Source: a virus
Taxonomy: Duplodnaviria; Heunggongvirae; Uroviricota; Caudoviricetes
Direction: 5' to 3' (one strand)
Length of the DNA stretch: 23,925 nt
IMG/VR virus record: IMGVR_UViG_2654587569_000016
Part shown: positions 15,662 through 15,905 of the stretch, one piece after another
Numbering within the stretch: the first letter of the stretch is position 1
How the letters are laid out: the number at the start of each line of letters is the position of its first letter
Notes under the pieces: model-generated
Told to the model about the DNA's origin: nothing
Database searches by the model: none
What the model saw: only the letters and a program-made list of their open reading frames with translations
Made by a program: the position numbers and the translations under genes

Positions 15662-15737
15662 GGCCCTTTAGCTCAGTGGTGAGAGCGAGCGACTCATAAT
15701 CGCCAGGTCGCTGGTTCGAATCCAGCAAGGGCCACCA
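15662..15737 (+). tRNA. tRNA with CAU anticodon (Ile2/lysidine-like or Met)
   Basis: Hand-folded cloverleaf: 7-bp acceptor stem GGCCCTT/AAGGGCC, D-arm GCTC-AGTGGTGA-GAGC, anticodon loop CTCATAA, T-loop TTCGAAT, encoded CCA. Confidence 0.85.
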
Positions 15738-15738
15738 A

Positions 15739-15815
15739 CCGCCACTAGCTCATCGGGATAGAACGCCAGCCTTCGAAGCTGGTTTCGCGGGGTTCGAGTC
15801 CCCGATGGCGGTCCA
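15739..15815 (+). tRNA. tRNA-Arg (UCG anticodon), slightly degenerate
   Basis: Perfect anticodon stem CCAGC/GCTGG with loop CTTCGAA, T-arm CGGGG-TTCGAGT-CCCCG, encoded CCA; one mismatch each in acceptor and D stems. Confidence 0.55.
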
Positions 15816-15828
15816 TTACCGGTATTCT

Positions 15829-15905
15829 GCGTTGTTAGCTCAGCCGGACAGAGCAATTGCCTTCTAAGCAATCGGTCACTGGTTCGAATCCAGTACAACG
15901 CACCA
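15829..15905 (+). tRNA. tRNA-Arg (UCU anticodon)
   Basis: Acceptor GCGTTGT/ACAACGC, D-arm GCTC-AGCCGGACA-GAGC, anticodon stem ATTGC/GCAAT with loop CTTCTAA, T-loop TTCGAAT, encoded CCA. Confidence 0.85.

Follow-up and report, generated by a model that had tools for sequence, protein, structure and literature searches.

The stretch of DNA analysed here, referred to as the window, comprises the 23,925 nucleotides (nt) of IMG/VR record IMGVR_UViG_2654587569_000016. It is a lambdoid prophage with a late region of the Shiga toxin (Stx) phage type. ARAGORN finds exactly three tRNA genes in these 23.9 kb, all on the plus strand and located between the gene for the late antiterminator Q and the lysis genes. 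Together with a promoter-like element and an intrinsic-terminator hairpin they form the ileZ-argN-argO cassette, a module of about 330 bp (15624-15954) that is bounded, conserved and closed by a terminator hairpin of its own. In order along the DNA the features are:

15624-15652, plus strand: promoter-like element, TTGCAG-17 nt-TATTAT and then a G+C-rich stretch, ending 9 nt 5' of ileZ (from reading the sequence; promoter function presumed)
15662-15737, plus strand: ileZ, predicted tRNA-Ile2 type, anticodon CAU (ARAGORN; Rfam 72.6 bits, E 2.3e-14)
15739-15815, plus strand: argN, tRNA-Arg(UCG) (ARAGORN; Rfam 40.1 bits, E 2e-05)
15829-15905, plus strand: argO, tRNA-Arg(UCU), predicted to read AGA/AGG (ARAGORN; Rfam 71.4 bits, E 4.8e-14)
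15918-15945, plus strand: intrinsic-terminator-like hairpin and T-run closing the cassette (terminator scan)

The spacers are 1 nt between ileZ and argN and 13 nt between argN and argO, and the CCA end is encoded in all three tRNA genes. The bit scores and E-values, obtained with the Rfam tRNA covariance model RF00005 (gathering score 29), mean that the three matches are not due to chance. A first-pass annotation made from the letters alone had listed three tightly spaced tRNA genes with CAU, UCG and UCU anticodons; ARAGORN and Rfam showed its coordinates, anticodons and spacing to be exact, and the prediction software accepted all three folds, each above the gathering score.

The gene with the CAU anticodon was labelled tRNA-Met by ARAGORN. 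This label was ruled out by comparison with the genes of K-12, where ileZ is 88.2% identical to ileX and 70.5% to metT/metU, and by the PGAP annotation of NCBI, in which the ileZ ortholog is a tRNA-Ile. Judged from its ileX-like body the gene encodes tRNA-Ile2, a reader of AUA and not a tRNA-Met, as was implied when AUA was earlier proposed as one of the codons to be tested. It contains C4-G69, C5-G68, U12-A23, C29-G41 and A73, which we take to be identity elements for TilS and IleRS, and the C6-G67 pair of K-12 ileX is replaced by T6-A67, a compensatory change. The cloverleaf of argO is intact with zero stem mismatches, and A20 and C35 are present. Identity to host genes is 71% for argO and argU and 63-64% for argN and argQ (ACG). 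To our knowledge K-12 is without a UCG tRNA-Arg, and argQ is its nearest CGN reader. The host genes ileX/ileY and argU have the same anticodons and decoding roles (AUA; AGA/AGG) as the corresponding phage genes, but the phage copies are clustered in the late operon of a prophage.

The cassette is homologous to the tRNA cluster of Stx phages, as its position had suggested. The region 15561-15954 of the window, from the 3' end of the methylase gene through ileZ-argN-argO to the terminator, is 90.5% identical to Stx2a_1447 over 402 aligned columns, and the 244-nt cluster is 95.5% identical to that of Stx2a_F349 without any gap. The genes ileZ, argN and argO are annotated in Stx2a_1447 (AP012536), Stx2a_F349 (AP012530) and Min27, the cluster being of the 933W/Sp5 type. 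Stx2 phages have the same genes, order and anticodons, and their cassette is found 3' of Q, with or without a methylase gene between, and 5' of the lysis genes; in Stx2a_1447 a methylase gene adjoins the cassette on the 5' side as it does in the window. The same terminator hairpin follows argO. It is conserved in Stx2a_1447, Stx2a_F349, E. coli EC12 and phage Evi, and in the Stx2 phages it is located just 5' of stx2A. The 1-nt spacer between ileZ and argN is shared with Stx2a_F349, whereas compared with Stx2a_1447 the window has an 8-nt deletion between these genes. A further difference is that Stx2 phages carry stx2AB 3' of the cassette, where the window has a terB-like pseudogene and a DUF3927 gene.

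The layout of the window is found also in a toxin-less prophage of EC12 (NZ_CP070229, 145703-145946), with a small open reading frame (ORF), methylase, tRNA-Ile, tRNA-Arg, tRNA-Arg, TerB-family, DUF3927 and class II holin genes. The two are 98.0% identical in the cluster and 92.9% identical along 3.6 kb. EC12 differs in three ways: the annotation gives an intact TerB gene, Q belongs to a different type with 273 amino acids, and argN has T7-A66 and shares the D-stem mismatch alone.

The cassette is already known: it is annotated in GenBank, appears in the Stx-phage literature and is present in 56% of complete E. coli genomes. In Stx2a/c/d phages three tRNA genes ('Met', Arg, Arg) have been described between q and stx, with a variable middle position (PMC7366253; PMC7946995). 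Genes for tRNA 3' of Q are a general lambdoid feature; SfI, Sf6, ST64T and phage 21 carry Asn/Thr genes, whose proposed role is to serve codons that are commoner in the phage than in the host (PMC3636060). These genes share the niche (after Q, before lysis) and the proposed role with the cassette, but they are other tRNA species and unrelated in sequence.

Variation among the three tRNA genes

In the argN gene of the window 19 of the 21 stem pairs form. The two that are unpaired are C7·A66 in the acceptor stem and C11·A24 in the D stem (standard tRNA numbering), which confirms the two stem mismatches reported at first pass, both being C·A. G18, G19, A20 and the T-loop TTCGAGT are retained. Both mismatches are derived, because the argN of Stx2a_1447 has Watson-Crick pairs in the same places, T7-A66 and C11-G24. 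The mismatch C11·A24 is common to the EC12-type allele and C7·A66 is confined to the lineage of the window, that is, the window itself, two assemblies and one IMG/VR contig.

Alleles of argN in which all pairs form have Rfam scores of 53.6-58.4 bits, and alleles with one or two mismatches 42.9-44.4 bits. The 40.1 bits of the window allele are the lowest score among the detected alleles, yet above the gathering score; it is among the weakest alleles still recognisable as a tRNA. The minimum free energy (MFE) is -28.7 kcal/mol for the window allele and -36.0 kcal/mol for an intact allele, a fold 7.3 kcal/mol weaker in which the D arm no longer forms, though this is weak evidence. The MFE z-score of the window allele is -0.83. 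MFE is a weak test at this locus, since the cloverleaf was not recovered even for ileZ or argO, and only the energy difference between argN alleles is therefore used.

The first scan for related loci was anchored inside ileZ and argO and was thereby biased toward intact neighbours. The argument on constraint is for this reason based on a second scan, with anchors outside the tRNA genes (the 3' end of the methylase gene and the terminator), which gave 85 loci with 44 unique haplotypes of one linked 370-nt stretch. Variation along this stretch, with nucleotide diversity given as pi, is distributed as follows:

ileZ: 4 alleles, 5% segregating columns, pi 0.0086 per site, A27·C43 as the only stem mismatch (84 of 85 loci)
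argN: 27 alleles, 30% segregating columns, pi 0.057 per site, stem mismatch in 16 of 85 loci
argO: 10 alleles, 10% segregating columns, pi 0.0070 per site, stem mismatch in 2 of 85 loci
spacers: 47-55% segregating columns, pi 0.15-0.21 per site

Thus argN is about seven times more polymorphic than ileZ and argO. The number of segregating columns differs between argN and argO (Fisher test, p=0.004) and between argN and ileZ (p=8e-5). Since the three genes share one genealogy yet differ in diversity, ileZ and argO must be strongly constrained and hence used. Both are under strong purifying selection, and argN is under relaxed, but not absent, constraint in the family as a whole.

The A27·C43 mismatch at the top of the anticodon stem of ileZ, where K-12 ileX has G·U, is present also in 169 of the 171 loci of a wider set. 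Being found in nearly every copy, it is a fixed and tolerated feature and not a sign of decay. It follows from its conservation that single C·A mismatches can be tolerated. In the same wider set argN has at least one mismatch in 81 loci and two or more in 72. The middle tRNA was not detected by ARAGORN in 35 of 121 loci, and no compensatory double change was found among 47 distinct 77-nt argN alleles, in which 45 cells are unpaired. The earlier suggestion that the middle tRNA may be decaying is therefore supported by the derived mismatches, the score of 40.1 bits, the raised pi and the lack of compensatory changes among these alleles. The window argN is weakened and possibly an early pseudogene, and in this lineage it is probably on its way to being lost.

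More drastic changes of the middle position are found elsewhere. A common 80-nt 'argN' allele (L104, L105, L080, L056 and about 25 other loci) has kept the acceptor and T arms but has the anticodon arm replaced, and neither ARAGORN nor Rfam recognised it as a tRNA. In individual loci the anticodon of the middle position is UCU or UUG, GenBank records list Lys, Thr or Pro genes there, and argN alleles with A58G in the T-loop occur. A tentative and rather doubtful reading is that the middle slot is unstable, argN being lost or rewritten across Escherichia prophages with the window allele as an early stage, and that a degenerate copy may persist only as a spacer or processing scaffold for its neighbours.

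In the literature searched, variation in the middle position is mentioned only in the form of annotation differences, without an analysis in terms of selective decay. The one mildly new element of the present analysis is that the relaxation of argN has been quantified and extends through the family. This relaxation constitutes a small and clean case of decay of a single gene within a conserved polycistronic tRNA unit.

The slot downstream of the cassette

The 244-nt cluster was found in 7595 places in 3060 of the 5426 complete E. coli genomes, and one genome may have as many as 13 of them. The stx2AB genes were found in 740 places in 599 of the genomes, so at most about one tenth of the cassettes adjoin stx2; in the IMG/VR sample the share is 16-17%. 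A cluster without toxin had been presented as an oddity, but these figures show that it is the majority and normal state. An exact-pattern scan of GTDB species representatives found the cassette only in Escherichia (E. coli, E. albertii and Escherichia sp.) and in two metagenome bins. The bins, named 'Proteobacteria bacterium' and 'uncultured Collinsella sp.' (L190 and L194), contain exact matches and are probably mis-binned Escherichia prophage contigs.

In agreement with the first-pass annotation, no toxin gene follows the cluster in the window. Searches of the whole window with Stx2A and Stx2B (tblastn) gave a best E of 0.76 and no stx-like coding sequence, and a degraded remnant of stx, looked for in the same way, was not found. 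The arrangement that characterizes a Stx-converting phage, stxA and stxB between the cassette and the lysis genes, is thus absent from the window. Homology to Stx2a_1447 ends at 15954, which is 43 nt 5' of the stx2A start, and restarts at 16674 within an STnc100 element, 87 nt 3' of the stx2B stop. By these breakpoints the segment between them corresponds exactly to the stx2AB insertion. That the window lacks stx simply reflects one of the states which the slot beside the cassette can take. The slot and its contents in the window are:

15955-16673: variable 'moron' (accessory-gene) slot (blastn breakpoints against Stx2a_1447)
16076-16494, plus strand: terB/tciA-like pseudogene (PF05099 TerB on the C-terminal ORF)
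16491-16658, plus strand: gene for a DUF3927/TciB-like small membrane protein of 55 amino acids (PF13064 E 3.7e-16; phrog_1470 'TciB-like' E 6.5e-28)
16666-16846, plus strand: STnc100-family prophage small RNA (sRNA), the right edge of the slot (Rfam RF02076, 117 bits)

Compared with its intact homologs in EC12 and phage Evi, the terB/tciA-like gene has an in-frame GAA to TAA change at 16133-16135, a 2-nt deletion and an 11-nt deletion. A strong terminator (16874-16902) is located 3' of STnc100. In Stx2a_1447 the STnc100 element likewise follows stx2B at a distance of 87 nt, and in prophages with an empty slot it follows argO at about 100 nt. It has been linked to the PasD sRNA in a 2026 preprint. 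The element was noted at 16666-16846 of the window and at L001 5820-6035.

The state of the slot was surveyed in the 139 loci where positions were obtained for both argO and the core of STnc100:

empty, 100-140 nt: 62 of 139 loci
ORF of 108 amino acids of unknown function, about 720 nt: 23 of 139 loci
terB with or without DUF3927, 790-860 nt: 22 of 139 loci
stx2AB, 1430-1470 nt: 23 of 139 loci
other lengths (200-670, 1150 and about 3400 nt): 9 of 139 loci

The protein encoded by the 108-amino-acid ORF starts MVFSALNIYHSYGVGRVNIDEASG (L007 and 22 other IMG/VR loci). The cassette terminator and STnc100 together bracket a defined insertion slot that is empty or holds stx2AB, tciA/tciB-like genes or the 108-amino-acid ORF, and they have value as landmarks. 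A prophage like that of the window represents the backbone without toxin, which stx can enter or leave by recombination. In PPyecE_EH1910 (L002 4235-4930) it is the cassette itself that is replaced, between the methylase and TerB genes, by a toxin-antitoxin-like pair annotated 'plasmid stabilization protein' and 'transcriptional regulator'.

Role of the cassette

The feature is very probably the tRNA cassette of Escherichia lambdoid prophages, supplying decoders of rare codons in the rightward late operon. The tRNAs would be transcribed from a weak promoter of their own, from the Q-antiterminated late transcript, or from both. The hexamers of the promoter-like element are near-invariant in 44 unique homologs, with a variable spacer between them, and the element is kept in Stx2a_F349, although the rest of the upstream sequence is unrelated there. 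Because the hexamers are conserved and persist in Stx2a_F349 in spite of its different upstream gene, the tRNAs may be made in the lysogen as well. In Stx phages the Q-antiterminated late transcript carries stx and the lysis genes (review PMC8065619).

The tRNAs would be freed from the transcript by the action of host RNase P and of exonucleases that trim the 3' end; the processing of polycistronic tRNA transcripts in E. coli allows for a spacer of 1 nt. Host TilS is expected to convert ileZ to the lysidine form that reads AUA, argO would read AGA/AGG and argN CGA/CGG. In this way the cassette would make more decoders available for codons that core genes of E. coli seldom use and that are 2.4- to 8-fold commoner in prophage and accessory genes.

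Codon usage was compared between 33 genes of the window (6638 codons) and 40 core genes of K-12 (15120 codons), with the following frequencies per 1000 codons:

ATA: window 9.8, K-12 core 2.8 (3.5-fold)
AGA: window 7.2, K-12 core 1.1 (6.8-fold)
AGG: window 5.4, K-12 core 0.7 (8.2-fold)
CGA: window 7.7, K-12 core 3.2 (2.4-fold)

All four differences are significant (p<=1.4e-5). The genes on the transcript of the cassette (14215-19390) have 16.9 ATA, 11.3 AGA and 1.9 CGA per 1000, and stx2AB has 36.6 ATA and 14.6 AGA. The codon most enriched in the AT-rich DUF4236 gene of the window is CGA, with 9 of 396 codons or 22.7 per 1000 (Poisson P 6.9e-06 against the K-12 core rate), and this is the codon of the decaying argN. 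The proposal that nearby cargo genes benefit from the tRNAs is in accordance with this enrichment. It cannot be separated, however, from a property of lambdoid prophage genes in general, as the comparison with a prophage lacking the cassette makes clear. In PPyecE_EH1910 the frequencies are 9.8 ATA, 9.5 AGA, 4.3 AGG and 5.5 CGA per 1000, not significantly different from those of the window (all p>=0.1), although its host strain also carries a cassette-bearing Stx2 phage. The enrichment was therefore rejected as evidence of co-adaptation, with which it is not to be equated, and is only compatible with a benefit.

The codon usage of PPyecE_EH1910 is one of the points that count against this explanation, together with some other observations. 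The host already carries ileX/ileY and argU, which may leave little added benefit. The promoter-like element is a poor match to the consensus (3/6 and 5/6) and falls under the threshold of the consensus scanner. The mismatches of argN, its 40.1 bits and its MFE z-score of -0.83 imply that in the window a third of the cassette or more may have no function. Finally, the steps from transcription to decoding are drawn from established tRNA biology of E. coli and should be read as a presumed course of events.

Three other explanations were considered, and none of them is favoured by the data. The whole cluster could be a relic without function, carried along by a decaying prophage, with all three tRNAs effectively dead. 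The adjacent terB-like gene with its three inactivating lesions and the two derived mismatches of argN would fit this, as would the rarity of the exact window allele, which was found only in two draft assemblies and one IMG/VR contig, the best match in the 5426 complete genomes being 98.0%. A relic is nevertheless very improbable, since ileZ and argO are 20-30 times less polymorphic than the flanking spacers on the same haplotypes and score 72.6 and 71.4 bits, argO being without mismatch and ileZ having only the family-wide A27·C43, and since the rest of the prophage, between integrase and portal, appears intact. In other systems phage tRNAs are known to take over when host tRNAs have been cleaved, and the genes of the cassette could mainly be decoys or replacements that sustain translation when an anticodon nuclease (e.g. 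colicin D-type toxins or a tRNA-targeting defence) cuts host tRNA-Arg or tRNA-Ile. Identities of 71% between argO and argU and of 63-64% between argN and argQ are as expected of a nuclease-insensitive substitute, and the slot genes belong to the TciA/TciB families, labelled 'inhibition of cell division or resistance to colicin'. There is little chance that this is the main role, however: the window showed neither a nuclease nor a matching defence gene, ileZ differs little from host ileX (88% identity), argN as one of the two Arg tRNAs is being lost, and the anticodons are the classic rare-codon set in a phage whose genes are rich in those codons.

The cassette could also be kept chiefly as an island of homology for lambdoid recombination, by which accessory genes (stx, tciAB and others) are swapped, with tRNA function as secondary. 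The boundaries of homology are of the kind that such a role would give. On the left side homology with Stx2a_F349 starts at the -35-like hexamer, the upstream gene being Q there and the methylase in the window, and on the right side homology ends at 15954, with at least four states of the slot beyond. The tRNA genes have moreover been proposed as markers of a captured stx region (PMC7366253). Recombination would, on the other hand, leave unexplained why ileZ and argO are conserved down to the single base when argN drifts between them, and why the cloverleaf pairs of ileZ and argO are intact; mosaic boundaries can equally well be a consequence of conservation as its cause. We regard it as highly unlikely that homology is the chief reason for the presence of the cassette, and the supply of rare-codon decoders is retained as the preferred explanation.

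The surrounding prophage

The window is identical to contigs of the NCBI assemblies GCA_001266405.1 and GCA_001265655.1. Outside the cassette and slot the main features are:

1-1314, minus strand: integrase
1370-1606, minus strand: excisionase
left of Q: S24 repressor, then replication genes
12155-12520, plus strand: late antiterminator Q, 121 amino acids (PF06530 Phage_antitermQ E 2.6e-51; phrog_79 'anti-termination protein Q-like' E 2.9e-50)
12688-13875, minus strand: DUF4236 AT-rich cargo gene, 395 amino acids, G+C content 0.417 (PF14020 E 7.2e-20; phrog_17982)
14032-14412, plus strand: small ORF of phrog_331, 126 amino acids (E 3.6e-47), called as 65 amino acids (14215-14412) in the NCBI assemblies
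14563-15621, plus strand: N6/N4 DNA methyltransferase (PF01555 E 3.6e-44), annotated as DNA methylase in homologous records
17304-19390, plus strand: lysis cassette (PF04971, PF07041, PF00959, PF03245)
17304-17519, plus strand: class II holin
17524-18075, plus strand: DUF1327
18396-18929, plus strand: lysozyme
18926-19390, plus strand: Rz
right of the lysis cassette: terminase and portal genes

The location of the tRNA genes between Q and the lysis genes, as given at first pass, holds with Q 3.1 kb upstream, but the ORF beside the methylase gene is not Q, as it belongs to phrog_331 and not to PF06530. This ORF was a candidate, a 126-amino-acid protein being annotated as Q in PPyecE_EH1910, and was ruled out for want of any Pfam match. 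The true Q is that at 12155-12520, and its family, phrog_79, covers the Q genes of Stx2a_1447 and PPyecE_EH1910 as well. The phrog_331 ORF ends at a hairpin and T-run (14399-14425) found in the terminator scan. An ORF of 131 amino acids on the minus strand (15668-16063) overlaps the tRNA genes and was dismissed as spurious.

The DUF4236 gene, on the opposite strand, separates Q from the remaining late region, and promoter-like sites are found at 13972-14036. As the gene interrupts the Q/late region, the late promoter is probably located to the right of it. Farther to the left, isrK (57.6 bits) and a C4 antisense RNA (85 bits) adjoin each other at 7771-7959 according to Rfam, at the start of an Ash/Rha-type gene (7714-8376), an arrangement that recalls the antirepressor control region of P1/P7 immI type and Gifsy type. 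A gene for an SPFH/Band 7 family protein (2439-3266, minus strand) is part of the early-left recombination/accessory region of the prophage.

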